Assembly: GCA_035533375.1 (NCBI GenBank)
Contig: DATLTV010000013.1
Coordinates: 1-53,566, forward strand
Length of the DNA: 53,566 nucleotides
Direction: 5' to 3'
Source: Minisyncoccota bacterium
Lineage (GTDB): Bacteria > Patescibacteriota > Minisyncoccia > UBA6257 > 2-01-FULL-56-20
Made by a program: the position numbers and the translations under genes. Of the stretch, positions 742 through 49,225 are shown in pieces (the first letter of the stretch is position 1; each line of letters begins with the position of its first letter). The notes under the pieces are model-generated. The model searched no databases. It saw only the letters and a list, made by a program, of their open reading frames with translations, and was not told the DNA's origin.

Positions 742-797
742 GAAAAGGCTTTCGTAAATCAGGAAACCAGGCATCCACTTCCATAGTCAGACCAAAG

Positions 798-1289
798 ATT
801 AACAGCCAAATAACCGCCCCGGAGCTCAGGGTGATCGACGAGACCGGGAAAAACATCGGCGTTTTGAAGCGCGAGGAGGCGCTTGCGCTCGCGAAGCCCG
901 ACATTGGCCTCGACCTCATCGAGATCTCGGCTGCGGCGAAACCGCCGGTCGCGAAGCTCATGAGCTACGACAAGTACCGCTACGAGGCCGCGAAGCAGGC
1001 GAAAAAAGAGCGGGCGGCGCGGAAAGGCGGTGAATTGAAGCACGTGCAGATCAGCGCGCGCGCGGCGATGAACGATTTACAGATCAAACTGAAGCAACTC
1101 GAGAAGTTTTTGGCCGAGGGAAACACCGTCGAGATCCAGATGCGCCTCCGCGGCCGTGAAAAATACAACCGGGACTGGGCGCGCCAAAAACTTGCGGAAT
1201 TCCTGAAAATGATTACAGTAGAGTACAAAGCCCTGAACGAACCCCGCTTCGGCGGCCAGGGGATGAATATGCAGATTGCCAAAAAATAG
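798..1289 (+). CDS. infC: translation initiation factor IF-3, probable non-AUG (ATT) start
   Basis: The track ORF 831..1289 (MIDETGKNIGVLKREEALALAKPDIGLDLIEIS...) is IF-3. In-frame upstream codons read K-I-N-S-Q-I-T-A-P-E-L-R-V-I-D, the conserved IF-3 N-terminus. No ATG/GTG/TTG lies between the stop at 741-743 and GTG 831, so the start is probably ATT 798 (or ATA 783). GTG 831 is the conservative alternative. Confidence 0.9.
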   Translation: MNSQITAPELRVIDETGKNIGVLKREEALALAKPDIGLDLIEISAAAKPPVAKLMSYDKYRYEAAKQAKKERAARKGGELKHVQISARAAMNDLQIKLKQLEKFLAEGNTVEIQMRLRGREKYNRDWARQKLAEFLKMITVEYKALNEPRFGGQGMNMQIAKK

Positions 1290-1404
1290 CTCCATAGCTC
1301 GTAAGCACCGAATCGCATTGCAATGGCGATTCGCCTGCTAAGCTCGTAAGCCACTCGAAAACGGATTGGCTTACGAGCTTACGAGCTTACGAGCTTACGA
1401 GCCT
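1287..1404. repeat. AGCTCGTW-octamer / hairpin composite element in the infC-rpmI spacer
   Basis: AGCTCGTA occurs at 1296-1303 and 1341-1348. There is a hairpin CGAATCGC/GCGATTCG (1309-1333) and a perfect 14-bp stem AAGCTCGTAAGCCA (1340-1353) / TGGCTTACGAGCTT (1367-1380). Four tandem TTACGAGC octamers (1371-1402) end 4 nt before the rpmI ATG. Confidence 0.8.
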
Positions 1405-1406
1405 TT

Positions 1407-1574
1407 ATGAACAAAGCCGCATCCAAACGAATCAGAATCACGAAAAATGGAAAGATCGTCCGCCGCTCAATGGCGGTGAATCATTTCCGCACCCGCACGT
1501 CACAGAAAAACATCCGCGGCAAAAGCAAAACGCGGTCACTTGATTATCCGATAAAAAAAATACTAAATTACTAG
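1407..1574 (+). CDS. rpmI: 50S ribosomal protein L35
   Basis: My own translation gives MNKAASKRIRITKNGKIVRRSMAVNHFRTRTSQKNIRGKSKTRSLDYPIKKILNY (55 aa, below the ORF-track cutoff). The basic L35 pattern and the position between infC and rplT support the call. Confidence 0.85.
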   Translation: MNKAASKRIRITKNGKIVRRSMAVNHFRTRTSQKNIRGKSKTRSLDYPIKKILNY

Positions 1575-1646
1575 ATGCGGATTAGCGCGGACACAGCCAT
1601 AGAAGCGAATAAACGCAGATCTGCGCACATCAGCTTCTAAAATCAT

Positions 1647-1991
1647 ATGCCCAGAGTCAAACGAGGCGTACACGCCCACAAACATCGCGAAAAGCTCCTG
1701 AAATACACGAAAGGCTTCCGCTGGAGCAGGAAGTCGAAGGAGCGCGCCGCAAAAGAAGCGCTCCTCCACGCCTGGACGCACGCTTTCGCCGGGCGCAAAA
1801 ACAAGAAGCGCGTTTTCCGCCAGCTGTGGAACGTGAAGATCAACGCGGCGGTCCGCGCGGAAGGAATGAACTACAGCAGGTTTATTGCGGCGCTCAAGAA
1901 GAAAGGCGTGAAGCTCGACCGCAAGGTACTCGCCGAGATCGCGGAAAATCATCCTGCCGCATTCAAGAAAGTGGTTTCTTTTGTGAAATAG
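1647..1991 (+). CDS. rplT: 50S ribosomal protein L20
   Basis: MPRVKRGVHAHKHREKLLKYTKGFRWSRKSKERAAKEAL... is a typical L20. The gene completes the infC-rpmI-rplT operon order. Confidence 0.95.
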   Translation: MPRVKRGVHAHKHREKLLKYTKGFRWSRKSKERAAKEALLHAWTHAFAGRKNKKRVFRQLWNVKINAAVRAEGMNYSRFIAALKKKGVKLDRKVLAEIAENHPAAFKKVVSFVK

Positions 1992-2006
1992 GTTTTTCAC
2001 AAAAGA

Positions 2007-2130
2007 AACCATCCTGACGAAAGTCAGGATCCAGTGAAGTAATAAAAAATGGCTCCTCCGCGAGCCATTTTTTATTCTCCCCGCGTCCGCCGGAGTCGGA
2101 TCCTCCCCGGGCGGACACGCGGGGATCCAG
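2007..2130. repeat. REP-like GC-rich hairpins of the GGATCC type
   Basis: ATCCTGAC-GAAA-GTCAGGAT followed by CC (2011-2032), and CCCCGCGTCCGCC...GGCGGACACGCGGGGATCC (2078-2130). The same style of element recurs at 2703, 8572, 30721, 33770 and 49393. Confidence 0.6.
2044..2073 (+). terminator. intrinsic terminator after rplT
   Basis: AAAAAATGGCTC-CTCCGC-GAGCCATTTTTT: a 12-bp stem including A/T arms, followed by a T-run. Confidence 0.6.
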
Positions 2131-2157
2131 ATTCATCGTGAATTCCGCGAATGACGA

Positions 2158-2655
2158 TTACCGCCGCGGATGCGGACGACTCCGCGCCTGGAGGAAGTCC
2201 TGCGCCTGCTTCAATACTTTCTTCGTATCGCCGTATTTTTTGCCAATCACGTTCATCGCATCGTGATACGTGAACCAGCCGAAACCGGAGTGCTCGCGCG
2301 GATCGATCCTGATGTCCGCCTTATGGGTCTCAGCGAGGAATAAAATCACCGTATCGTAAATACCCTGGTTCCCTATTTTGAAATAGAACCGTTCATAAGC
2401 GCGGAAGTTCGGCATGATACGCAATTCTATTTTTTTGATGCCGGTCTCCTCCTCGAGTTCGCGCAGTGCCACATCGATCGTGCTCTCTCCCGGCTCGAAG
2501 TGTCCCTTGGGAAAGTTCCAATAATTGCCGCGGCGATAGAGCAACAGGAATTTAATCCCGTCACTCGTTTTCCGATACACTACAAAACCGGCAACCACTT
2601 GTTTTTTTGTAGGAGGTTTCTCGTGAGGAGGTTCGGATTGCCGCGGCGGGGTCAT
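2158..2655 (-). CDS. NUDIX hydrolase
   Basis: Nudix box GHFEPGESTIDVALRELEEETGI (G-x5-E-x7-REUxEExGU). Confidence 0.85.
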   Translation of the reverse strand: MTPPRQSEPPHEKPPTKKQVVAGFVVYRKTSDGIKFLLLYRRGNYWNFPKGHFEPGESTIDVALRELEEETGIKKIELRIMPNFRAYERFYFKIGNQGIYDTVILFLAETHKADIRIDPREHSGFGWFTYHDAMNVIGKKYGDTKKVLKQAQDFLQARSRPHPRR

Positions 2656-2741
2656 GAAGATATTATATCACGGTTTTTTTATATCGTCATCTTCTAGCAT
2701 TGTCGCCCCGGCGAAGGCCGGGGTCGGGATGACTAAATTCC

Positions 2742-4487
2742 TCAATTGTTTTTGAGGAATTTAGTCATTTTTTCCACGGGCCAGGCGTTCACAATATCCT
2801 TTTTTCCGGCCCAGCCGCGCCTGGCTTGCGCAATGCCGTACTCGAGATTTGCAAAGTGGGCGGAGGAGTGGGCGTCCGAATCAATCGAAAGCTTCACGCC
2901 GCGGTCGACGCACTTGCGGATGTATTCGTCTTTCAGATCGGATCGCTCCGGAAACGAATTGATCTCCAGCACCGTTCCGGTTTTTTTTGCCATCGTAATC
3001 ACTTCGTCCATATCGAGGTCGATAGGCTCGCGGCGATTGATGATGCGGCTCGTGGGATGGAAAAGGATGTCCGCATGCGGGTTCGAGATTGCGCGGATCA
3101 CGCGTGCGGTCTGTTCCGCGCGTGGCAGATTGAAGTGTGAATGGACCGAGACGCCCACGACATCGAGCTTCGAGAGGATTGAATCGGGCAAATCGAGCGT
3201 GCCATCCTTTAAAATATCGCATTCGCTTCCCTTTAATATCTTTATTTTGTTTCCAAGCTTTTTTTGCACGCGGTCGATCTCCTTCCATTGCAGGACAATG
3301 CGCTTTTCGTCGAGCCCGTGTGTCATCGCCAAACGCTTTGTGTGGTCCGTGATTACGATATATTCGAGGCCTGCCTTCGCCGCGGCAAGCGCCATGGCCT
3401 CGATCGGCTCCGTGCCGTCCGTCCAGTCGGTCTGTGTCTGCAGGTCGCCCATGAGCGCGCCGTACTCGATAAGCTTCGGCAGGGCATGCTTTCGCGCCGC
3501 TTCAAGCTCGCCCGTGTTCTCGCGGAGTTCCGGTTCGATGTAATCCATTCCGAACGCTTTATATAATTCTTCTTCGTTTTTTCCCGCGAGCCGCTTCGCA
3601 CCGCGGAAAAGCCCGTATTCATTCAGTTTCCACCCCTTCGCGACGGAAATTTTCCGCAATGCCACGTTATGATCCTTCGATCCGGTGAAATAGTTGAGTG
3701 CCGCACCGTAGGATTCCGCAGGCACGACGCGCAAGTCCACATTCAAGCCGGACCTGAGTTTTACGGACGACTTCGTATCGCCATGAGCAATGACCGCGGC
3801 GACCTCGGGCATGGAAACGAATTTCTCCATGATCGCTTTTGAATTTTTAGCGACCGCGAGAATGTCCGCATCGCCGATTGTCTCTTTCTTGCGCCGCGCG
3901 GAACCGGCGATCACGACCTTCTCTGCGCCCGGCACTTCTTCAAGTCGCGCCTGTACCCTGCGGATCTGCGGCATCGCGTAGCCCAAAATGAACCGCCGGT
4001 TGCCGTTCGCAAAGGTCAGCGATTTCGCGATCTTCTCCTCGCTTTTCTTGCCAAAACCGGCAAGCTTCGCGATATGCCCGGCCTTCACCGCTCTCTCAAG
4101 CGTCGCGCGATCTTTAACGCCGAGTTCTTTATAGAGCCGCTTGATTGTTTTCGGGCCCACGCCTTCGATGCCCGCGAAATCGGCGAGCTTCACCGGCACC
4201 TGTCTTTTGAGCGTTTCGTGGTCCTTGATCCTGCCGGTCTTCAAAAATTCCTCGATGCGCTCCGCGATGCCCTTGCCCACGCCCGGAATTTCCTCGAGCG
4301 CCTTCAAACCGCCTTTTTTATAGAGGGCGGAAACTTCTTCCTCGAGTCCTTCGATTGTCTGCGCCACTTTTTCGAACGCGCGCGGCTTGAACGGCACGTC
4401 CTGCATTTCGAGATAGGTCGCGATCTCGCGGAGAATCTCGGCGATGTCCTGGTTCGAAGCGTCGTGCATGAATTCAGTATAACGCAT
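2742..4487 (-). CDS. family X DNA polymerase with C-terminal PHP phosphoesterase domain (PolX)
   Basis: 581 aa. The N-terminus has HhH motifs (IPGVGKGIAERI, IEGVGPKTIKRLY). The nucleotidyltransferase core is GSARRKKETIGDADIL. The PHP region is TDWTDGTEPIE...ITDHT...SVHSH...DSDAHS. Confidence 0.9.
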   Translation of the reverse strand: MRYTEFMHDASNQDIAEILREIATYLEMQDVPFKPRAFEKVAQTIEGLEEEVSALYKKGGLKALEEIPGVGKGIAERIEEFLKTGRIKDHETLKRQVPVKLADFAGIEGVGPKTIKRLYKELGVKDRATLERAVKAGHIAKLAGFGKKSEEKIAKSLTFANGNRRFILGYAMPQIRRVQARLEEVPGAEKVVIAGSARRKKETIGDADILAVAKNSKAIMEKFVSMPEVAAVIAHGDTKSSVKLRSGLNVDLRVVPAESYGAALNYFTGSKDHNVALRKISVAKGWKLNEYGLFRGAKRLAGKNEEELYKAFGMDYIEPELRENTGELEAARKHALPKLIEYGALMGDLQTQTDWTDGTEPIEAMALAAAKAGLEYIVITDHTKRLAMTHGLDEKRIVLQWKEIDRVQKKLGNKIKILKGSECDILKDGTLDLPDSILSKLDVVGVSVHSHFNLPRAEQTARVIRAISNPHADILFHPTSRIINRREPIDLDMDEVITMAKKTGTVLEINSFPERSDLKDEYIRKCVDRGVKLSIDSDAHSSAHFANLEYGIAQARRGWAGKKDIVNAWPVEKMTKFLKNN

Positions 4488-36431: not shown

Positions 36432-36896
36432 CTACTCCTCCCGCATTTCGCGTCGCGCGGATTTCTCTTTGAGGAATTCCCGCTTGTCGGATTTTTTGCG
36501 CGGTCGGCCGAGTCCGAGTTCGATCTTCACGAGGTTTTTTTTGACGTACGCGCGGAGCGGGATGAGCGAGGATTTTTTCTCTTTCATAAGCCCCGCGATG
36601 CGTTTGATTTCCGCCGTGTGCATAAGAAGCCGGCGCGTATGGCCGGGGTCGTAATCGAGCGGCGAATTTTTCGGTTGATACGCCGGAATCTGTGAATTCA
36701 AAAGCCAGAGCTCGTTTCCCCGGACGAGCGTATGCGCTCCCGAAAGCTGCATCTGTCCGGCTTTCGCGCTTTTCGCCTCGAAGCCGCGGAGCTCGATGCC
36801 CGCTTCGAAAGTTTCCGCGATCTCGTAATCGAACCGCGCGCGGCGGTTCAAAGCGATTGTGTCCGGCGGCTTCTCCATCAGTTCAGTATAAACCAT
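36432..36896 (-). CDS. smpB: SsrA-binding protein
   Basis: TIALNRRARFDYEIAETFEAGIELRGFEAKS...GHTRRLLMH... are SmpB motifs. The start is ATG 36896 or 36878. The track's longer N-terminus is discarded. Confidence 0.9.
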   Translation of the reverse strand: MVYTELMEKPPDTIALNRRARFDYEIAETFEAGIELRGFEAKSAKAGQMQLSGAHTLVRGNELWLLNSQIPAYQPKNSPLDYDPGHTRRLLMHTAEIKRIAGLMKEKKSSLIPLRAYVKKNLVKIELGLGRPRKKSDKREFLKEKSARREMREE

Positions 36897-37190
36897 CACC
36901 GGCCCATTCGTATGAATGAACCGATATATCCGAATCTTTCGTTGCAACGGCGTATAAAAAGAGCCGAAACCAGATGGGGATTTGGCCCATATCGCGCCCC
37001 GTGGTATTTTTGAGATAGGTTCTATAAAAAGTCCGTGACCGCAAAATAAAAGGGCGGTGGCTGGCCCGATTGGTGCGGAAGAGGGGTTCATTCGGAGCCA
37101 CTTGGGGTCTTTCCCTCTTGCGCACGGTAGGATGATCATCGGGATGCCACCGCGTATGAAATAGCATAGGAGGGAATACATGTCATTTTT

Positions 37191-38885
37191 ATGAAGTCCA
37201 AGATTGAGGAGATTCTAAGGAAAGCGGTCGGCAGCGGGCCGGTCGATATTTTCGTTCCCGAAAAAGAGAACTTCGGGCATTATTCGACGAACATCGCGCT
37301 CCGGCTAGCGAAGCCTTCCGGTAAAACCCCGCTTGAGTTCGCGAAAGAGCTCGCGGAGAAAATCGCCGTATCGGCGCCCGCGGGACTTTTTGAAAAGGTG
37401 GAAGCGGCGCCGCCGGGCTTCGTGAATTTTTGGCTTGCGAAAGAGACCGTACAAAACGAATTCGCAAAAGCGGCGAAAGAAAAAACATTCGGCAGGAGCG
37501 CCGCTCACAAAAACAAGACCGTGATCGTCGAATATTCCCAGCCGAACATCGGCAAGATGATGCACGTGGGCCACCTGCGCACGACGATCATCGGCGACGC
37601 TCTCGCGAATATTTTCGAGTACCTCGGCTACAAAGTGATCCGCTGGAATTATTTGGGCGATTGGGGAACGCAGTTCGGCAAGCTCATCGCCGCTTATAAA
37701 ACATGGGGGGATAAACGAAAGGTCAAGGAACATCCGATCGACGAACTGCAGAAGCTATACGTGCGCTTCCACGACGAGGCGAAGCGCGATCCGATGCTTG
37801 AGATGCAGGGCCAGGCCGAGTTCAAGAAGCTCGAAGACGGCGATAAGGAAAACCGCAAGCTCTGGGAATGGTTCAAAAAGGAATCCCTGAAGGAGCTCGA
37901 CAAGATTTATGCGACGCTCGGCGTCGGTTTCGATACATACATCGGCGAAAGTTTTTTTGAAAAGAACATGAGGCCGCTTGTCGAGGAATTGCGGAACGAA
38001 GGCATCCTCACGAAAAGCGGCGGCGCGCTCATCGTGAATCTCGACGCCCTGAAACTGCCGCCTGCACTTGTCCTAAAAGCCGATGGCGCAAGCCTGTACC
38101 TCACGCGCGACATCGCCGCGCTCCGTTACCGCATCATAAAATTCAAGCCCGAGAAAATACTCTACGTCGTGGGCAATGAGCAATCGCTTCACTTCGAGCA
38201 GCTTTTCGCCATTGCGAAAATTCTTCGCATGGATAAAGCCGAGCTCAAACACGTGAAATACGGTCTGGTGCTCGGCGAAGCGGGCACGAAGCTTGCGACG
38301 CGCGAAGGCCGGACGATCCTCCTCAAAGACGTATTGCGCAAAGCGATCGAGCTTGCGCGGAAAGTGGTCGACGAGAAAAATCCGGCGCTTCAGGCGAAGG
38401 TGAAAGACAAGATCGCGGAAGCCGTCGGCGTCGGAGCCCTGAAGTACAACGACCTCAAAGAGAACCGCAACTCGGACATCACATTCAATTGGGAGCGCAT
38501 GCTCGACTTCACGGGCGATAGCGGGCCGTATTTGCAGTACACGTATGCGCGCTTGAAAAGCATTATCAGAAAATCTCAAACCTCAAACCTCAAATCTCAA
38601 AAATTCGAGATGCTCAATTCCGATATTGAACTCGCGCTCATGCGGAAGATATTCGAATTTCCCGACGAGGTCGCGCGCGCGGGCGAGGCGCTCATGACGA
38701 GCACGCTCGCGGCCTATCTTCACAAACTCGCCGTCCTCGCGAACAAATTCTACGAAACAACGCCGGTGTTGAAAGAAGAAAATCCCGTCCGCCGCGCCGC
38801 GCTCTTATCGCTCATCTCCGTGGCTGCGGAAACGCTCAAAAACGGCCTCGCGCTTTTGGGAATCGAAACGACGGAGGAGATTTGA
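37191..38885 (+). CDS. argS: arginyl-tRNA synthetase
   Basis: 564 aa. The HIGH-type motif is SQPNIGKMMHVGHLR and the C-terminal anticodon-binding (DALR) region is present. Confidence 0.95.
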   Translation: MKSKIEEILRKAVGSGPVDIFVPEKENFGHYSTNIALRLAKPSGKTPLEFAKELAEKIAVSAPAGLFEKVEAAPPGFVNFWLAKETVQNEFAKAAKEKTFGRSAAHKNKTVIVEYSQPNIGKMMHVGHLRTTIIGDALANIFEYLGYKVIRWNYLGDWGTQFGKLIAAYKTWGDKRKVKEHPIDELQKLYVRFHDEAKRDPMLEMQGQAEFKKLEDGDKENRKLWEWFKKESLKELDKIYATLGVGFDTYIGESFFEKNMRPLVEELRNEGILTKSGGALIVNLDALKLPPALVLKADGASLYLTRDIAALRYRIIKFKPEKILYVVGNEQSLHFEQLFAIAKILRMDKAELKHVKYGLVLGEAGTKLATREGRTILLKDVLRKAIELARKVVDEKNPALQAKVKDKIAEAVGVGALKYNDLKENRNSDITFNWERMLDFTGDSGPYLQYTYARLKSIIRKSQTSNLKSQKFEMLNSDIELALMRKIFEFPDEVARAGEALMTSTLAAYLHKLAVLANKFYETTPVLKEENPVRRAALLSLISVAAETLKNGLALLGIETTEEI

Positions 38886-38907
38886 TGCCGTCCCGCTAAG
38901 CCAGCGG

Positions 38908-38937
38908 CATCGGCTAATTCGTGCGAATTAGCCGATG
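38908..38937. repeat. 30-nt palindrome, ATTCG-NN-CGAAT family, copy 3
   Basis: CATCGGCTAATTCG-TG-CGAATTAGCCGATG, 23 nt after the argS stop. It shares a 24-nt core with copy 2. Confidence 0.9.
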
Positions 38938-38998
38938 GTTGACGCTCACGCGCGCATCGCTCATTATTGAAGGCAGCGGGAATTCATGGAGGTGTAAC

Positions 38999-39430
38999 AT
39001 GGTTATAGGGTCATTTTCTGTCCTCGGAGAGATCATAGCGGTGCTTTTGGCGGTTGCCCTTATCCTGCTCTCGCGGCGTGGATCGCATGCGCAGCCGATA
39101 CTTCCCGCGAACGTCGAAGGCCTCACGCCGGAAGATGCCGCCAAAACGCCCACCAAAGAGCTGATGGAAAAAATTTGGTTACACCGGGCCAAACGTCTCG
39201 GCATCTCCGTCGAGGAAGCGAAAGCGGGATTCGAAGAGGACATAATCCAAAGCAGGATGCGCGAATTCAGGCTTTCCCGCGAGGAAGTCATTGCGCGCGG
39301 ACTAAATTTGAAGCCTCTCTATCTCATCGCCGCGGAACAGATGGCCGCTCGTCGCGGCATTACCGCAGAAGAACTTCTGCGCGAATATGACAAACGGCTC
39401 AAGCTACCGTCGGATCTGGATATCAAGTAA
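38999..39430 (+). CDS. membrane-anchored hypothetical protein (143 aa)
   Basis: ATG 38999 is preceded by GGAGGTG. The sequence MVIGSFSVLGEIIAVLLAVALILL is followed by a charged helical region. Confidence 0.6.
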   Translation: MVIGSFSVLGEIIAVLLAVALILLSRRGSHAQPILPANVEGLTPEDAAKTPTKELMEKIWLHRAKRLGISVEEAKAGFEEDIIQSRMREFRLSREEVIARGLNLKPLYLIAAEQMAARRGITAEELLREYDKRLKLPSDLDIK

Positions 39431-39540
39431 GTTGGGTTTCAATGGCGTCGCGCCCGCCGGAGGCGGATCCTCTTCTGGAGGAAAAGCGGCGCCTTTTTTA
39501 TCGTTGATTTTTCGGCGAAAAACTGATATTTTGAGGGAAT

Positions 39541-42500
39541 ATGCCAGCCAATGATGAAGCGAAGACCGATACCGGATTCAATCTCCCCGCGAAAGAAGAG
39601 GAGGTTTTGAAGTTCTGGGAGGAAAAGCATATTTTCGAGAAAAGTCTCGAGAAGAACAAGCCGGAAAAAGCCGGAGCCGGAAAAAAAAATACCTTCGTGT
39701 TTTACGAAGGCCCGCCGTATGCGAATGGGAAACCGGGGATCCACCACGTGCTCGCGCGCATCGTGAAGGACGTAATCCTGCGCTACAAAACGATGCGCGG
39801 ATTTTACGTGCCGCGGAAAGCCGGCTGGGATACGCACGGGCTCCCGGTCGAGATGGCTGCGGAAAAAGCGCTCGGCTTCAAATCGAAAAAGGACATCGAA
39901 CAATACGGCGTGAAGCGGTTCAACGAGAAAGCGAAAGAGCAGGTGTGGCTTTATAAAGACGAGTGGGAGAGCATGACGCGCCGCATCGGCTACTGGCTCG
40001 ATCTCAAGAACGCCTACGTGACGTACGAGCCGGAATATATCGAGACGCTTTGGTGGACGCTCCAAAAAATCTGGCAGAACAAGCTGTTGTACAAAGGGCA
40101 CAAGGTCGTGCCGTGGTGCACGCGGTGCGGCACGGCGCTTTCCTCGCACGAGCTCGCGCAGGGATATAAAGAGACGACCGACAATTCGGTGTATGTGAAA
40201 TTCAAGTTAAAATCTGGACAAAAAATCGGCGATCATACCATAAAGAGCAAAGATAAAATATACATATTATCGTGGACAACGACCCCTTGGACGCTTCCCG
40301 GAAACGTGGCGCTCGCAGTCGGCCCGAATATACAGTATCGCGCCGTAGAACAAAGCGGAGAATATTTGATTGCCGCAGTCGATCGGCTTAAGGATCTTGG
40401 GCTTGATAGCGCGCATGTTTCGCGCGAAATCACGGGCTCGCAACTCGTTGGCTTGGAATACGAACCGCTTTTTAATATTCCCGCATTGCAAAAAGAAAAA
40501 TCATACAAGATCTACCCTGCGGATTTTGTGACAACAACAGATGGTACGGGCGTCGTGCATACGGCCGTGATGTACGGCGAGGACGACTATCGGCTCGGTA
40601 AAAAGATTGGTCTGCCGGAGCATCATACCGTGGACGAAGAAGGGAAATTCACGAAGGACGTGTCGGGCCTCGCCGGTTCCTATGTAAAATCCAAAGAAAC
40701 GGAAGAAAAAATATTCGCGCATCTCGAAAAGGACGGGAATTTGCTCCGCAAAGGAGCGTATACGCACGAATATCCTTACTGCTGGCGCTGCGGAACACCG
40801 ATTCTTTACTACGCGCGCACGTCATGGTTCATCGCGATGTCCTCATTGCGCGAGAAGCTTCTGGCCGCAAACAAAAAAATAAATTGGATGCCGGAACACG
40901 TGAAGGAAGGCCGCTTCGGCGAGTGGCTCCGCGAAGTGAAGGACTGGAATCTTTCGCGCGAACGTTATTGGGGCGCGCCATTGCCGATCTGGGAGTGCAA
41001 AAAGTGCGGCGAGCTCGAAGTGATCGGCGGCCTCGATGATCTGAGCGCGAAAGCGGGAGGATCGAAAAATAGTTATTGGACGATGCGGCACGGGTTCGCG
41101 GAGAATTTGATCGAGAAGATCCTCGATTCGGGGCAGAAGGAGTTGCATCTTACGGAGCTTGGCCGCGACCAGGTGCGGCGGTCGGCGGAAGCATTGAAAA
41201 AAGAGCTTGCAAGCCATAAAAAGAAAATCGATTTCATCGTCGCGTCGGACGTGTTGCGTACCAAAGAGAGTGCGGAGATCGCGGCGGCGGTCCTTGGGGT
41301 TCCCGTCGAATTCGACAAACGACTCCGCGAGATCCATCTCGGCGTGTTCGCCGGCCGGCACGAAGGAGGGTGGCACAAACTGTTCCCGACGCTTGAATCG
41401 CGCTTTGAAGGCGCTCCGGAAGGAGGGGAAACGTTGCGCGACCTGCGGGCGCGCATGTGGCAGGCCGTGACGGAACTGGAAAAAAAGTATAACGGCAAAA
41501 ATATTTTGATCATGAGCCACGAGTATCCGATCTGGATGCTCACGCACGCGGCGGAGGCATGGAGCGAGAAGCGCGCGATCAGGGAGAAACAAGACCGCGG
41601 AGACGATTTTGTCGTGCCTGCGGCGTTCGGCGAGCTCCGCGTGAAGATCGTGCCGCGGAACGACACGGGCGAAGTGGATCTGCATCGGCCGTTCGCCGAC
41701 GATATCCCGCTGCCCTGCAAAAAATGTGGAGGAGAGATGCGCCGGATAAAAGAGGTGGCGGACGTCTGGTACGATTCCGGTGCGATGCCGTTCGCGCAAG
41801 ATCACTACCCGTTCGCTTGCGTGAAAAATCAGAAATCAGAAATCCGGAATCCGAAACCACCCGAAGCGTATCCCGCCGATTATATCGCCGAAGGCATGGA
41901 CCAGACGCGCGGCTGGTTTTACACCCTGCTTGCGGTCGCAACCGCGCTCGGATACGAAGCGCCTTACAAGAACGTGATCTCGCTCGGACTTATCAACGAC
42001 AAATTCGGCCAGAAAATGTCCAAATCAAAAGGCAATGTCGTCGATCCCTGGGCCGTGATACGGAAATACGGCGCCGATGCCGTGCGCTGGTATTTTTATA
42101 CGGCGAACCCGCTCGGCGAGCCGAAGAATTTCGACGAGCTCGAGATTTTGAAATCCTACCGGAGGATGCACCTGATCCTTTGGAATTCGGTTGCATTTTG
42201 GAAAACCTATGCCTCGGGCGGTGTTGGTTCCGAACCTCCGCAATCGAAAAATGTTCTCGATCAATGGATTCTTGCGAGATTGGATGAGGTAGCCGAAGAA
42301 GCATCCGCGCGGCTCGAGCAATACGAGATCCGGGAAGCGGCGCTCGCGATAGAATCGTTCGTAGACGATCTTTCGCGCTGGTATATCCGCCGGTCACGGA
42401 AGCGCTTACAGCATTCGACGGATGAGGTTGATTTCAAATCGGCGTCGGCGACGCTCGGCTTCGTGCTTCGCGAAACGACAAAACTTATTGCGCCATTTAC

Positions 42501-43101
42501 GCCGTTCTTCGCCGAATCATTATACGAAAACTTCAAAGAGCGGGAATCGGTGCATCTCGATTCCTGGCCGAAAGCGAAGGGAAAGATCGATGCCAAATTG
42601 ATCGAGGGAATGGCGGAGGCGCGTCGGCTTGCGAGCCTCGGCCTTGCGAAGCGGGCCGAGTTGAAATTAAAGGTGCGGCAACCACTCGCGAATATGAAAA
42701 TCAAGTCTCAGGTCTCAAGTCTCAAATCTCAACATGATCTGCTTACCATTCTTGCGGACGAAGTGAATGTGAAGGAAGTGGCATTTGATGAAAAGATTGC
42801 GGGTGAAGTTGAACTCGATACCACGATTACGCCGGAGTTGAAAGAAGAAGGACTGCTCCGCGAGGTCGCGCGCGCGGTGCAGGGATTGCGCCAGGAAGCG
42901 GGCCTTGCGCCGAAGGACAAAGTTGCGGTGATGCTGGAACTTCCCGTTGCGGCGAAGAACGCGGTGCAGAAAAACGAAGGCGCGTTCAAATCCGATGTCG
43001 GCGCGGCGTCGGTTTCATACGGTAAATCAGAAAAGTTCGATGCGGAGGCATCGACGAAAGTGGATGGCGCGGAAGCGTGGATAGGAATACGAAAGGTTTA
43101 A
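39541..43101 (+). CDS. ileS: isoleucyl-tRNA synthetase carrying an internal histidine-phosphatase-like domain
   Basis: 1186 aa. It has PPYANGKPGIHHV (HIGH), the editing domain, KMSKSKGN, and CxxC knuckles at residues 486-489 and 726-729. A roughly 205-aa RHG...SH phosphatase-like insert lies between the knuckles. Confidence 0.95.
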   Translation: MPANDEAKTDTGFNLPAKEEEVLKFWEEKHIFEKSLEKNKPEKAGAGKKNTFVFYEGPPYANGKPGIHHVLARIVKDVILRYKTMRGFYVPRKAGWDTHGLPVEMAAEKALGFKSKKDIEQYGVKRFNEKAKEQVWLYKDEWESMTRRIGYWLDLKNAYVTYEPEYIETLWWTLQKIWQNKLLYKGHKVVPWCTRCGTALSSHELAQGYKETTDNSVYVKFKLKSGQKIGDHTIKSKDKIYILSWTTTPWTLPGNVALAVGPNIQYRAVEQSGEYLIAAVDRLKDLGLDSAHVSREITGSQLVGLEYEPLFNIPALQKEKSYKIYPADFVTTTDGTGVVHTAVMYGEDDYRLGKKIGLPEHHTVDEEGKFTKDVSGLAGSYVKSKETEEKIFAHLEKDGNLLRKGAYTHEYPYCWRCGTPILYYARTSWFIAMSSLREKLLAANKKINWMPEHVKEGRFGEWLREVKDWNLSRERYWGAPLPIWECKKCGELEVIGGLDDLSAKAGGSKNSYWTMRHGFAENLIEKILDSGQKELHLTELGRDQVRRSAEALKKELASHKKKIDFIVASDVLRTKESAEIAAAVLGVPVEFDKRLREIHLGVFAGRHEGGWHKLFPTLESRFEGAPEGGETLRDLRARMWQAVTELEKKYNGKNILIMSHEYPIWMLTHAAEAWSEKRAIREKQDRGDDFVVPAAFGELRVKIVPRNDTGEVDLHRPFADDIPLPCKKCGGEMRRIKEVADVWYDSGAMPFAQDHYPFACVKNQKSEIRNPKPPEAYPADYIAEGMDQTRGWFYTLLAVATALGYEAPYKNVISLGLINDKFGQKMSKSKGNVVDPWAVIRKYGADAVRWYFYTANPLGEPKNFDELEILKSYRRMHLILWNSVAFWKTYASGGVGSEPPQSKNVLDQWILARLDEVAEEASARLEQYEIREAALAIESFVDDLSRWYIRRSRKRLQHSTDEVDFKSASATLGFVLRETTKLIAPFTPFFAESLYENFKERESVHLDSWPKAKGKIDAKLIEGMAEARRLASLGLAKRAELKLKVRQPLANMKIKSQVSSLKSQHDLLTILADEVNVKEVAFDEKIAGEVELDTTITPELKEEGLLREVARAVQGLRQEAGLAPKDKVAVMLELPVAAKNAVQKNEGAFKSDVGAASVSYGKSEKFDAEASTKVDGAEAWIGIRKV

Positions 43102-43728: not shown

Positions 43729-43882
43729 CGCGCTCCTCCCTGTGAAGATTTCTGCCGAAATGTTAGCACAAAAACGGGAAACAGGCAAATGAAAAGTCGC
43801 GTCCGGAGACCGCTACCGGAAATTCTCAAATGGTATACTAAAAGAAGCGTTATGTATTGATTGACAAAGGGAGGTGGCCGCT

Positions 43883-45196
43883 GTGGGAAAAAAAAGAAAG
43901 ACGCTCGACACGACGTTTTTGCATCCGCGGGCGCAGGAGCTCCAGGATTTTTTGGAGCACAGGCTCAAGCGCCAGCCGCGGGCAATCAAGTCCGTGGTCG
44001 AAGCGTATAATAATTTTCTCTCGCCCGTATGGGAAAACGGCCCGATCCTCGCTCTGCTTGCGATGGGGCCTTCGGGCTCGGGAAAGACGTATCTGCTGAA
44101 GCTGCTTGCCGAATTTTTTCTCGGCGACCAGAAAGCGATTACGAAGGTTTCCTGCCCGAGCCATAACGAACGGCATACGCTTGCGTCGCTCATCGGCGCT
44201 CCACCGGGATACATCGGGTATGACGAAGAGCCGCGGTTGTCGCAGAAGCGGCTCGAGGCGCCGGCGCTCAAGCTGGCGGTCGAAAAATACCTGAAGAACG
44301 ACGAACGGGCGAAAAAACTGCGGCAGGAAGCGGATAATGCCCTGAGACAGGTCCGGCTTGCGAGACGCCCCGAAGCAAAAATGGCGTTGCTTATGCAGTA
44401 TGGCCAGAAAGAAAGCGAGTATAAGTCGTATGTACAGTTGAAGCTGTGCGACAAGCCGCTGTTTATCTTTCTCCTGTTCGACGAACTTGAGAAAGGACAC
44501 GAAGCGATCCACCACTTCCTTCTCGAGGCGACAGATGAAGGTGAAACGCGCCTGGCGAATGGGGAGCCGGTGAACTTGAAACACGCGTTCATCGTGATGA
44601 CTTCGAACGTCGGGTCCGACAAGATTGCGAGCATTATGCAGGGGAGCCACGGACTCGGATTTTTCAACGGCGAGCGGAACGACGCAACGGTGACGCAGAA
44701 AGTGGGCGATGATATTTACGGCGTCTCGATCAAAGAGGCGGAAAAAGTATTTCGTCCGGAATTCCTCGGCCGCGTCCAGGTGGTCGTCTATCATCCGCTG
44801 GACAGGGAAGGACTCGACGAGATATTCGGAGAAAGAATATCCGCGCTTACGGAGCATCTTGCTTCGATGGGATTTCCGCTCGCGCTCGATATTCACGCCG
44901 CTGTCCGCGATTTTATCGTGACGGAGGCGACCGACCACCCGAAGTTCGGTGCGCGGCTGCTCAATAAGAAGATCGAGCATCACATCGGGAACCCGATCGC
45001 GCGCCTTATCGGTTCGGGGCAGGTGACACGGGACGACGACAAGCTTTATCTTGAGCTCGTGCCTGCTGCGGGCGGCAAAGGCAAGCCGAGCGTTATCTTT
45101 AAAAAAGACGATCGTCCGCCGAAAGCACCGCCGCCGTTGCCGGAAGATCCTCCGGCAAAGCCGGCAGAACCGGCACCGAAAGCATCTTCGGAGTGA
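43883..45196 (+). CDS. stand-alone single-ring AAA+ ATPase of the ClpB-D2 (AAA_2) type with coiled-coil insertion and Pro-rich tail
   Basis: Walker A GPSGSGKT, APPGYIGYDE, Walker B LLFDELEKG, sensor-1 MTSN, RPEFLGR, and a D2-small-like region. GTG 43883 lies 8 nt after AAGGGAGG. Confidence 0.8.
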   Translation: MGKKRKTLDTTFLHPRAQELQDFLEHRLKRQPRAIKSVVEAYNNFLSPVWENGPILALLAMGPSGSGKTYLLKLLAEFFLGDQKAITKVSCPSHNERHTLASLIGAPPGYIGYDEEPRLSQKRLEAPALKLAVEKYLKNDERAKKLRQEADNALRQVRLARRPEAKMALLMQYGQKESEYKSYVQLKLCDKPLFIFLLFDELEKGHEAIHHFLLEATDEGETRLANGEPVNLKHAFIVMTSNVGSDKIASIMQGSHGLGFFNGERNDATVTQKVGDDIYGVSIKEAEKVFRPEFLGRVQVVVYHPLDREGLDEIFGERISALTEHLASMGFPLALDIHAAVRDFIVTEATDHPKFGARLLNKKIEHHIGNPIARLIGSGQVTRDDDKLYLELVPAAGGKGKPSVIFKKDDRPPKAPPPLPEDPPAKPAEPAPKASSE

Positions 45197-48949: not shown

Positions 48950-49141
48950 AAATTGATTTCGTGAGTTCTAATTATTTTTTAATATATCGTTGTATAACTC
49001 GTGCGTTGCCGCGCGGCCGTGGGATCTTCTGTTTTATTTTTGAATTTACCCTCCATTGTCCTGCTGTTTCGGTTTTGTCTGCGGCAAGATATAAGAAAAT
49101 CTAAAACTCGCCACACTCGTTAAGTTTTCCTTTTTGTATTG

Positions 49142-49225
49142 TGGGCAGAGAGGGATTCGAACCCTCATGAGATTGCTCCCGCTGGCTCCTGAAGCCAGTG
49201 CGTCTGCCAGTTCCGCCATCTGCCC
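49142..49225 (-). tRNA. tRNA-Leu (anticodon CAG), class II with long variable arm
   Basis: My own fold of the minus-strand sequence is as follows. Acceptor GGGCAGA/TCTGCCC. Anticodon stem CTGGC/GCCAG with loop TTCAGGA. T arm GAGGG-TTCGAAT-CCCTC. Discriminator A. No CCA is encoded. Confidence 0.9.

Follow-up and report, generated by a model that had tools for sequence, protein, structure and literature searches.

Why would an aminoacyl-tRNA synthetase (aaRS) carry, inside its own polypeptide chain, what looks like a complete phosphatase? The question is raised by ileS, the gene for isoleucyl-tRNA synthetase (IleRS), in a contig of a Minisyncoccota bacterium (GenBank assembly GCA_035533375.1, contig DATLTV010000013.1, positions 1 to 53,566 of the forward strand; this whole stretch of 53,566 nucleotides is called the window below). 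A first-pass annotation, made from the letters, had placed a histidine phosphatase (HP) domain between the two cysteine knuckles of the enzyme. Synthetases belong to the most conserved and best-studied enzymes, and lineage-specific domains added to them have repeatedly marked new biology. Here, an apparently active enzyme of another class sits inside an essential synthetase across a large part of a big and little-understood bacterial radiation. The best overall explanation, to which we give a probability of roughly one half, is that the insert is a relocated phosphatase, once an operon partner of the synthetase, to which it would be functionally coupled. The architecture itself and its conservation throughout the lineage are close to certain.

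The host synthetase and the site of insertion

The open reading frame (ORF) of ileS is continuous over its 1186 amino acids (Table 1), as first annotated. Its product scores 871.1 bits against the NCBIfam ileS equivalog TIGR00392 (cut-off 621.4), in two stretches flanking the insert, and Pfam detects tRNA-synt_1 (again in two stretches, with PF00300 between them), Anticodon_1, and DUF5915. It aligns with the Thermus thermophilus enzyme (1ILE) at E=6e-233, and the best Foldseek matches of the whole-chain model are IleRS2 (8C8V), yeast IleRS (8WND), and again 1ILE, with TMt 0.79-0.90. As in the type-2 IleRS of known structure (1ILE and 8C8V, the latter from Priestia megaterium), one finds the same domain order, the KMSKS loop, the CP1 editing motifs (W245-N255 is invariant among relatives), Thermus-type pairs of zinc knuckles, and the C-terminal domain characteristic of IleRS2. 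The synthetase motifs had been described as intact. This holds for KMSKS and the editing domain, but the segment PGIHHV contains a swapped G-x-H-H in place of the canonical HxGH. Position 66 is occupied by G in 72 of the 120 nearest relatives and by A in 46 of them; H68 and H69 are kept in 118-119. GxHH is also present in insert-less IleRS (loci L010, L012, and L018), with the canonical HYGH in another (L014). This G/AxHH variant is known in IleRS2, where it is functional and linked to mupirocin hyper-resistance (Brkic et al., doi 10.1101/2023.01.31.526100). From its sequence, the host protein appears to keep all the features of an IleRS, and it is predicted to be still the enzyme that charges isoleucine in the cell.

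The alignment to 1ILE breaks at residue 505 of the window protein (480 of the chain) and resumes at residue 712 (488 of the chain), so that about 206 residues replace about seven. The insert fits exactly between the segments ELKEKSE and LELHRPF of insert-less IleRS, and it is mapped by these alignments to the tip of the CP3 zinc hairpin, between the CKKC knuckles at residues 486-489 and 726-729. Both knuckles lie where they had been first recognized. The size initially given to the insert (about 205 residues) stands, and its span, set at first to positions 41065-41676, is refined to the boundaries of Table 1. In T. thermophilus IleRS, the zinc motif is part of the CP3 subdomain, whose topology varies between IleRS structures (Candida albicans IleRS structure paper, PMC7191050). 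The window protein differs from the type-2 enzymes of known structure at this hairpin tip, where the extra residues form an independent enzyme domain.

An AlphaFold2 (AF2) model of the whole protein (pLDDT 86.4, pTM 0.80) has its best-predicted part in the insert, with pLDDT 94-97 over most of it (range about 84-97) and 91-94 at the junctions; the insert is modeled as a compact α/β domain. Could the arrangement be an artefact, that is, a chimeric assembly, two genes fused by a frameshift, an intein, or another mobile element? The third-position G+C content (GC3) of the insert is slightly above the host mean (0.72 vs. 0.64), and nothing else was found that would point that way; the value lies within the range of host windows (0.53-0.75). 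The frame is continuous and the modeled junctions are confident. Pfam detects only IleRS domains and PF00300, with no intein, Hint, or endonuclease domain, and the junctions (KAGGSKN on one side, DTGE followed by VDLH on the other) have no Cys/Ser/Thr or His-Asn splice signature. An internal, in-frame insertion, as opposed to a terminal fusion, a frameshift, or an intein, had been proposed at the outset, and these observations bear it out. A chimeric assembly is rejected even without read mapping: the nearest relatives, assembled independently, show the same architecture in 120 cases out of 120, and 35 diverse IleRS carry the insert at the identical site. We regard an artefact of any kind as excluded for practical purposes. 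Recent horizontal acquisition of the insert was likewise rejected, given that its GC3 falls inside the host range and that it is common to very divergent hosts. On the opposite strand, antisense ORFs of up to 320 amino acids overlap ileS and the insert (e.g., 40843-41805); their translations are of low complexity and rich in Arg, and we take them to be by-products of the composition of the coding strand rather than genes.

The inserted domain

With the whole protein as query, PF00300 (His_Phos_1) matches residues 513-683 at E=1.5e-31, with 110 bits against a gathering cut-off of 21.7, and with the insert region alone it reaches 5.1e-33 (114.8 bits). Modeled by itself, the domain has a pLDDT of 95.9 and a pTM of 0.92. 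The nearest solved folds found by Foldseek are GpgP (Rv2419c), PhoE, TIGAR, the HP of the riboflavin pathway (HFP), PspA, and CobC, with template-modeling (TM) scores of 0.66-0.77; for GpgP, PhoE, TIGAR, and PspA, the probability is 1.00 and TM 0.69-0.77. The catalytic residues first assigned by eye, namely the RHG motif, the second Arg, the Glu, and the distal His660, align with the family positions in PhoE (1H2E/1EBB). By sequence and predicted fold, the insert is a complete branch-1 HP domain of a generic PhoE-like kind, with no recognizable mutase, CobC, or SixA character.

The broad-specificity phosphatase PhoE (YhfR) of Geobacillus stearothermophilus (1H2E, 1EBB) and the mycobacterial glucosyl-3-phosphoglycerate phosphatase GpgP (4PZ9, 4QIH, 6S2Q) share with the insert the branch-1 fold of about 200 residues and the alignable catalytic set, but their identity to it in the Foldseek alignments is only 24-26%. 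They are, moreover, free-standing enzymes with known small-molecule substrates, whereas the subfamily to which the insert belongs is embedded in a synthetase or encoded beside one. That subfamily has an N-terminal N-x-Y motif of its own and a C-terminal helix-strand extension.

The characterized HP families (cofactor-dependent phosphoglycerate mutase or dPGM, CobC, PspA, SixA, acid phosphatase, and RNase H/acid phosphatase) were tried and rejected, all scoring under the curated NCBIfam cut-offs. Among the dPGM equivalogs (NF038349, TIGR01258, NF002901, and related models), dPGM_arch gives 66-67 bits vs. 225 and GpmB 46-51 vs. 261. The α-ribazole phosphatase model of CobC (TIGR03162) gives 58-63 bits vs. 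162.9, and SixA (TIGR00249) 27.3 bits vs. 74.5, over the N-terminal third only. The best curated family is the RNase H/acid phosphatase NF005567 (PRK07238, of the Rv2228c type), in which an HP is also joined to a nucleic-acid enzyme; in that family, however, the fusion to RNase H is terminal, and the 83 bits of the insert are far under the cut-off of 326. A link to defense systems was rejected too, since no PADLOC-DB model matches the insert or two free-standing relatives at E<=0.01.

Table 1. Features of ileS, its inserted domain, and the genes upstream, with positions in the window
Feature	Position	Strand	Basis
smpB	36504-36920	-	window
argS (ArgRS, 564 aa), upstream neighbor of ileS	37191..38885	+	Arg_tRNA_synt_N, tRNA-synt_1d, DALR_1; synteny with L010/L012/L018
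argS-ileS interval, slot of the free hp gene in relatives	38886..39540	+	uncharacterized ORF only
ORF of 169 aa, GTG start, hydrophobic segment near N-terminus	38921-39430	+	ORF list
ileS, type-2 IleRS with internal HP domain, 1186 aa	39541..43101	+	continuous ORF, TIGR00392, Foldseek
Class I signature, non-canonical G66-I-H-H69 (G/AxHH replacing HxGH)	39736..39747	+	translation
CP1 editing domain, aa ~208-413, including TTTPWTLPGN	40162..40779	+	matches isolated editing-domain structures 1WK8, 1WNY
First CP3 Zn knuckle, C486-K-K-C489	40996..41007	+	C486 120/120, C489 119/120; aligns with T. thermophilus IleRS C461/C464
Inserted domain, predicted branch-1 HP, aa 506-711	41056..41673	+	boundaries from 1ILE and insert-less IleRS
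PF00300 envelope, aa 513-683	41077-41589	+	Pfam
R516-H517-G518, predicted phosphate-binding Arg and nucleophilic His	41086..41094	+	aligned to RHG of PhoE; 120/120
R573, predicted second Arg of the phosphate pocket	41257..41259	+	aligned to Arg of PhoE; 120/120
E597, predicted general acid (proton donor)	41329..41331	+	aligned to Glu of RLREIHLG in PhoE; 119/120, one Asp
H660, predicted distal His of the phosphate pocket	41518..41520	+	aligned to His of vtHg in PhoE; 120/120
Second CP3 Zn knuckle, C726-K-K-C729	41716..41727	+	120/120; aligns with second T. thermophilus IleRS knuckle
KMSKS loop, K825-S829	42013..42027	+	K825, M826, K828, S829 invariant
Anticodon-binding domain, aa 907-1049, and IleRS2-type C-terminal DUF5915, aa 1066-1186	42259..43098	+	PF08264 6.3e-30, PF19302 8.7e-17

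Conservation and spread of the insert

The best 120 database relatives of the window protein are 58-69% identical to it and all carry PF00300 together with the IleRS domains; they come from independent NCBI, JGI, ENA, and Logan assemblies named Paceibacterota, Parcubacteria, or Patescibacteria. In this family, the pairwise identity is about 51% for the insert vs. 68-70% for the host. Within the more variable insert, R516, H517, G518, S569, R573, and H660 are invariant (120/120) and E597 is kept in 119; three of the knuckle cysteines are also at 120/120 and C489 at 119/120. Purifying selection falls exactly on the catalytic residues, and it is likely that the phosphatase is catalytically competent.

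An exhaustive HMMER search with the insert only against 1.84 billion cluster representatives gave 365 matches below 1e-10. The best 150 of these include 30 full-length and 59 partial IleRS with an HP domain, and about 50 short proteins of 185-215 amino acids with a Met start. When the HP domains are excised and the hosts aligned, 35 diverse full-length IleRS share the cut-point Q504/505|712 (Q, numbering of the window protein), with a host identity to the window protein that goes down to about 40%. The catalytic set is kept in 24 of 25 other HP copies (in IleRS, valyl-tRNA synthetase [ValRS], arginyl-tRNA synthetase [ArgRS], TsaC, tandem, and free forms), and the exception is cut off by a stop codon; every intact copy, in all contexts, has R, H, S, R, E/D, and H. 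In a scan of GTDB genomes with a single sequence, five species representatives with IleRS-HP and four unrelated HPs (Bacillota, Nocardiopsis) were found. With the taxonomic breadth given at the level of Paceibacterota/Parcubacteria, the insert is a lineage feature of a large branch of the ultra-small Paceibacteria in the candidate phyla radiation (CPR) and not a peculiarity of the window genome.

This conservation bears on the suggestion that the domain is mainly non-catalytic, for instance a structural or oligomerization element or a phosphate or metabolite sensor of IleRS, or that it is a protein phosphatase working on the synthetase itself. Many HP proteins dimerize, and eukaryotic synthetases form complexes through appended non-catalytic domains. 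The multi-copy forms described below (two HPs in some IleRS, at least four in one ValRS, tandem free proteins) are also more typical of binding or scaffolding modules. A purely structural role is nonetheless unlikely, because the nucleophile and the general acid are strictly conserved, with the full catalytic set maintained in the 120 relatives (but for the single Asp at 597) and in all intact copies elsewhere; as to a phosphohistidine phosphatase, the SixA model stays at 27 bits vs. 74.5. We consider this group of explanations very improbable.

Free-standing phosphatase genes and the argS-hp-ileS order

The subfamily also exists as separate genes (hp). A search with one free protein (P0163) returned at least 479 clusters of free-standing proteins of about 190-199 residues, from Parcubacteria, Pacebacteria, or Paceibacterota. 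The genomic context was examined for seven free HP proteins, and in four (P0413, P0418, P0449, and P0467; seven loci) hp is directly upstream of ileS. The junction is a stop/start overlap (ATGA) in L012 and L014, and a gap of 4 nucleotides in L010 and of 1 nucleotide in L018. The IleRS encoded beside the free hp have 949-968 residues and no PF00300; they keep both CxxC knuckles, with a short hairpin between. The gene order in these loci is rplT-rpmI-infC / smpB / argS / hp / ileS / recO.

In the window, smpB and argS precede ileS as well, and the slot occupied by hp in the relatives contains only an ORF of 169 amino acids with no Pfam match and no similarity to HP. Searches of the window by tblastn with a free HP, and of all its ORFs with the insert HMM, match only the copy within ileS. 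Applied to every ORF of the window and of eleven related loci, twelve sequences in total, the same HMM finds exactly one HP in each: inside IleRS in the window and in L001-L005, free and upstream of ileS in L010, L012, L014, and L018, and fused to ArgRS in L016 and L017. This complementary pattern, with one HP per locus, is the main new result. With a single copy at every locus examined, the insert looks like a relocated operon partner of IleRS. It probably originated next to ileS, was moved into it, and the free gene was then lost.

Rough neighbor-joining trees of the hosts and of the HP domains are star-like and without support values, and are used only qualitatively. In the host tree, the radiation that carries the insert excludes a clade made up of three of the four IleRS that lack it and have a free hp beside them; in the HP tree, the free, ArgRS-fused, TsaC-fused, and CP3-inserted domains form one subfamily apart from the outgroups.

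The genes that flank smpB-argS in related loci, infC-rpmI-rplT and PolX-NUDIX, are located in the window at 780-4454, about 32 kb from the segment 36504-43101. The conserved block is, therefore, broken in the window genome.

Other captures of the same phosphatase subfamily

The domain has been captured elsewhere. A C-terminal HP fusion to ArgRS is present in three clusters (P0184, P0278, and P0279) and in none of the other 117 of the 120 nearest ArgRS. These genes occupy the same syntenic slot, and are, for that reason, most simply seen as read-through fusions of argS and hp. In one of them (P0184, L016:7001-9795), recO comes directly after argS-HP and overlaps its end; ileS is absent from the syntenic slot.

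In IleRS, two further loops are used. In P0264, the HP lies in a variable loop at Q756-775. Two HPs are present in P0155, at the CP3 site and at Q895-899 (after the catalytic body and before the anticodon-binding domain), and in P0210, at Q756-775 and Q895-899. Six proteins, each on its own contig, make up the P0210 cluster, and the longest of these contigs has 1.06 Mb. The member on that contig (P0276, L023:7001-11260), an IleRS of 1419 amino acids with two HPs, is accompanied there by purA and by genes for DAHP synthase, pyruvate:ferredoxin oxidoreductase (PFOR), and an S-layer homology (SLH) protein. Its lineage is probably less reduced than Paceibacteria, and the architecture may, thus, extend beyond that class.

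Two other hosts have each been seen once. TsaC/Sua5 (threonylcarbamoyl-AMP synthase) with a C-terminal HP (P0220, L020:977-2140) is on a single contig of 3.7 kb, with a HAD hydrolase gene before it and the gene of a PD-(D/E)XK protein after it; the pairing of hp with PD-(D/E)XK recurs beside a free hp in L026 and L027. In the ValRS P0262 (L021/L022:366-3851), the CP2 region contains one HP, and a tandem of at least three occupies the site equivalent to CP3. The ORF is closed by an in-frame TAA within the fourth HP copy, and HP-like sequence goes on in frame after it. The contig, of 3.9 kb and about 2x coverage, is present in two assemblies, and the stop may be a sequencing error or the mark of a decaying copy; genetic code 25 was rejected as its cause, the codon being TAA and not TGA. 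None of 80 other metagenomic ValRS loci contains an HP, and ValRS-HP was, accordingly, rejected as a recurrent family and is kept as a singleton.

Three of the seven free proteins do not adjoin ileS. P0437 and P0489 belong to a subgroup of 197-199 amino acids (L024:4270-5594, L025, L026:4280-5600, L027) in which hp overlaps the end of an upstream gene for a PF00483 sugar-phosphate nucleotidyltransferase, by 4 or 17 nucleotides. P0503 (L019) has an unrelated neighborhood. The fusion partners among the best 150 representatives are all aaRS or TsaC, with no unrelated partner.

What the phosphatase could do

In the explanation that we favor, a separate cistron of about 195 codons would have stood directly upstream of ileS in the order argS-hp-ileS, tightly packed and probably translationally coupled to it. 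In the ancestor of a large Paceibacteria radiation, hp would have moved into a type-2 IleRS, at the tip of the CP3 zinc hairpin, the free copy being lost afterward. The resulting polypeptide would have three active sites, for aminoacylation, CP1 editing, and phosphatase activity. In the last, following the standard HP mechanism, His517 would attack the substrate phosphate to give a phospho-histidine intermediate, Glu597 would protonate the leaving group, and Arg516, Arg573, and His660 would hold the phosphate. The HP might then clear pyrophosphate (PPi), or another phosphorylated product or by-product, beside the enzyme that releases it. Because the insertion sites differ and share no geometry, tethering would provide a 1:1 stoichiometry and proximity rather than precise channeling.

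A functional association is suggested because the captures at three IleRS loops and at the C-terminus of ArgRS, possibly also in ValRS and TsaC, together with the tight hp-ileS junctions, exceed what adjacency would predict. The identified partners, fused or tightly coupled (IleRS, ArgRS, ValRS, TsaC, and the sugar-1-phosphate nucleotidyltransferase), are all nucleotidyl-transfer enzymes that release PPi. This is a hint and not a proof. Since what the partners share is nucleotidyl transfer dependent on nucleoside triphosphates with release of PPi, and not tRNA, removal of PPi or of a by-product is the most economical guess. For the coupling of the HP to nucleotidyl transfer, we see the balance as even; PPi as the actual substrate is doubtful. 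Going further, the HP may have become a third catalytic site of the synthetase, selected for acting on a phosphorylated product, by-product, or damaged substrate of aminoacylation; candidate substrates may be PPi, a phosphorylated nucleotide, or a phosphorylated tRNA end. This is possible but rather unlikely. If it were so, Paceibacteria would have arrived independently, on several occasions, at a class I synthetase that is "self-clearing" or "self-repairing", a type of coupling for which no aaRS has been described.

Several observations weigh against functional coupling, or against parts of the history proposed. No curated NCBIfam HP equivalog comes near its cut-off, so that no substrate can be assigned from the family, and the structural neighbors found by Foldseek are ordinary small-molecule phosphatases. 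No inorganic pyrophosphatase is known to us among the branch-1 HPs, and the sole precedent found in the HP superfamily, an amoebic enzyme of branch 2, shows the activity only weakly (PMC7926622). The three IleRS insertion sites and the ArgRS C-terminus have no common geometry, which argues against substrate channeling and is what one would see if the domain were merely tolerated. The ArgRS fusion could be due to adjacency and nothing more, and adjacency could also have made a local rearrangement into ileS likelier, with no functional link. Some free members are found in unrelated contexts (L019) or in the nucleotidyltransferase, sugar-type context (L024-L027). The fusions to ValRS and to TsaC have each been observed once, on short contigs, the former at about 2x coverage and with no counterpart in the 80 other ValRS loci (0/80). 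The star-like, unsupported trees leave the direction from free gene to insert, and the number of events, not firm. A tblastn search of the window with E. coli Ppa, a canonical pyrophosphatase, gave no match, which is uninformative, the window being a fragment of a genome.

A rival explanation is a passenger, that is, an ordinary housekeeping small-molecule phosphatase, unrelated to aminoacylation, which was fused or inserted neutrally through gene adjacency in streamlined genomes and whose catalytic residues are conserved only since the cell still needs the unrelated activity. The metabolic phosphatases that are its neighbors by fold and sequence (GpgP, PhoE, TIGAR, riboflavin-pathway HFP, PspA, and CobC), the free members in other contexts such as beside the sugar-phosphate nucleotidyltransferase, the lack of shared geometry between the sites, the simple explanation of the ArgRS fusion by adjacency, the CP3 topology that differs anyway between IleRS structures, and the faster evolution of the insert relative to its host (51% vs. 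68-70% pairwise identity) are all in line with it. The placement of a whole domain in frame within a loop is, however, not a simple read-through, and yet it occurred at no fewer than three IleRS loops and apparently in ValRS. Besides, the fusion partners in the best 150 representatives are all aaRS or TsaC, hp and ileS overlap by stop and start in two lineages and are 1-4 nucleotides apart in two others, and the insert is kept without exception across a very large radiation (the 120 nearest relatives and the 35 diverse IleRS). A passenger is, in our estimate, possible but on the unlikely side.

Alternatively, the phosphatase could be directed at tRNA, removing a phosphate from tRNA-Ile so that the synthetase carrying it can charge the molecule. 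The candidates would be a 3'-terminal phosphate, a monoester derived from a 2',3'-cyclic phosphate, or the pyrophosphate added by a toxin at the CCA end. Toxic RelA/SpoT homologs do block charging by pyrophosphorylating the CCA end of tRNA. The main hosts (IleRS, ArgRS, ValRS) are tRNA-binding class Ia synthetases, and some free members are strongly basic, with a net charge of +23 in P0413 and +27 in P0418. The insert itself, on the other hand, is near neutral (+1, with a family mean of +3.4 +/- 4), and neither TsaC nor the PF00483 nucleotidyltransferase binds tRNA. In the ArgRS sequence, the HP comes after DALR, the anticodon-binding domain, which would place it far from the acceptor end. Defense-system models give no match, and we know of no enzyme of the HP superfamily that acts on RNA ends. 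Such a tRNA-directed role is improbable.

The tight upstream gene in the sister lineages, the ArgRS fusion, and the two other IleRS loops suggest that keeping the two activities together is selected. If the coupling is functional, organisms with minimal genomes would have a step, in aminoacylation or in the upkeep of tRNA, that has gone unrecognized. The natural series of split, fused, and inserted forms makes the function directly testable with one recombinant protein. Even a passenger would be a clean natural example of an adjacent gene becoming an inserted domain; it would show that a domain of 200 residues can be accommodated in CP3 and in two more IleRS loops, which is useful for synthetase engineering, and it would explain the annotation problems described below.

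Relation to known systems

No solved IleRS has an HP insert, and none was found in published IleRS. Literature searches for a histidine phosphatase (HP, PGAM, or His_Phos_1) in any aaRS, including those of CPR/Patescibacteria, returned no description, and the AARS Online paper mentions none. This agrees with the initial remark that no aaRS with an internal phosphatase had been described; hundreds of such sequences are, nevertheless, in the databases, unremarked. Lineage-specific accretion of domains on synthetases is already known, and the HP within aaRS is a real and widespread instance for which no published description was found.

The closest formal parallel is NF040702 (ileS_w_GNAT), a curated IleRS family with an extra enzymatic domain, internal as suggested by an offset in the coordinates. 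There, the domain is a GNAT and not an HP, apparently at another place, and the window protein, at 323 bits vs. a cut-off of 1999, is not a member. The accessory domains of eukaryotic aaRS (GST-like, WHEP, UNE-I) are also lineage-specific additions to conserved synthetases. Most of them are terminal, have no catalytic activity, and act in complex assembly or signaling; the module of the window protein, in contrast, is internal, bacterial, and has kept a full catalytic site. UNE-I of IleRS is mentioned in PMC11685878.

The database names are uneven. Insert-bearing IleRS are labeled by NCBI only as "class I tRNA ligase family protein" (the window protein under [Candidatus Paceibacterota bacterium]), and JGI labels a free phosphatase of 197 amino acids (P0428) as "isoleucyl-tRNA synthetase", apparently from its likeness to the IleRS inserts. 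Both look like side-effects of the insertion on annotation.

Other features of the window

At gathering thresholds, neither a T-box nor any other Rfam element was detected upstream of argS or ileS, and tRNA-Leu(CAG), at 49141-49225 on the reverse strand, is the one RNA gene detected in the window. Downstream from ileS, at 43874-45196 on the forward strand, is encoded a protein of 440 amino acids with only the ClpB-type AAA_2 and ClpB D2-small domains, so that it is a Clp/Hsp100-like ATPase with a single ring rather than a full ClpB; about 45 residues at its C-terminus are rich in Pro, Ala, and Lys.

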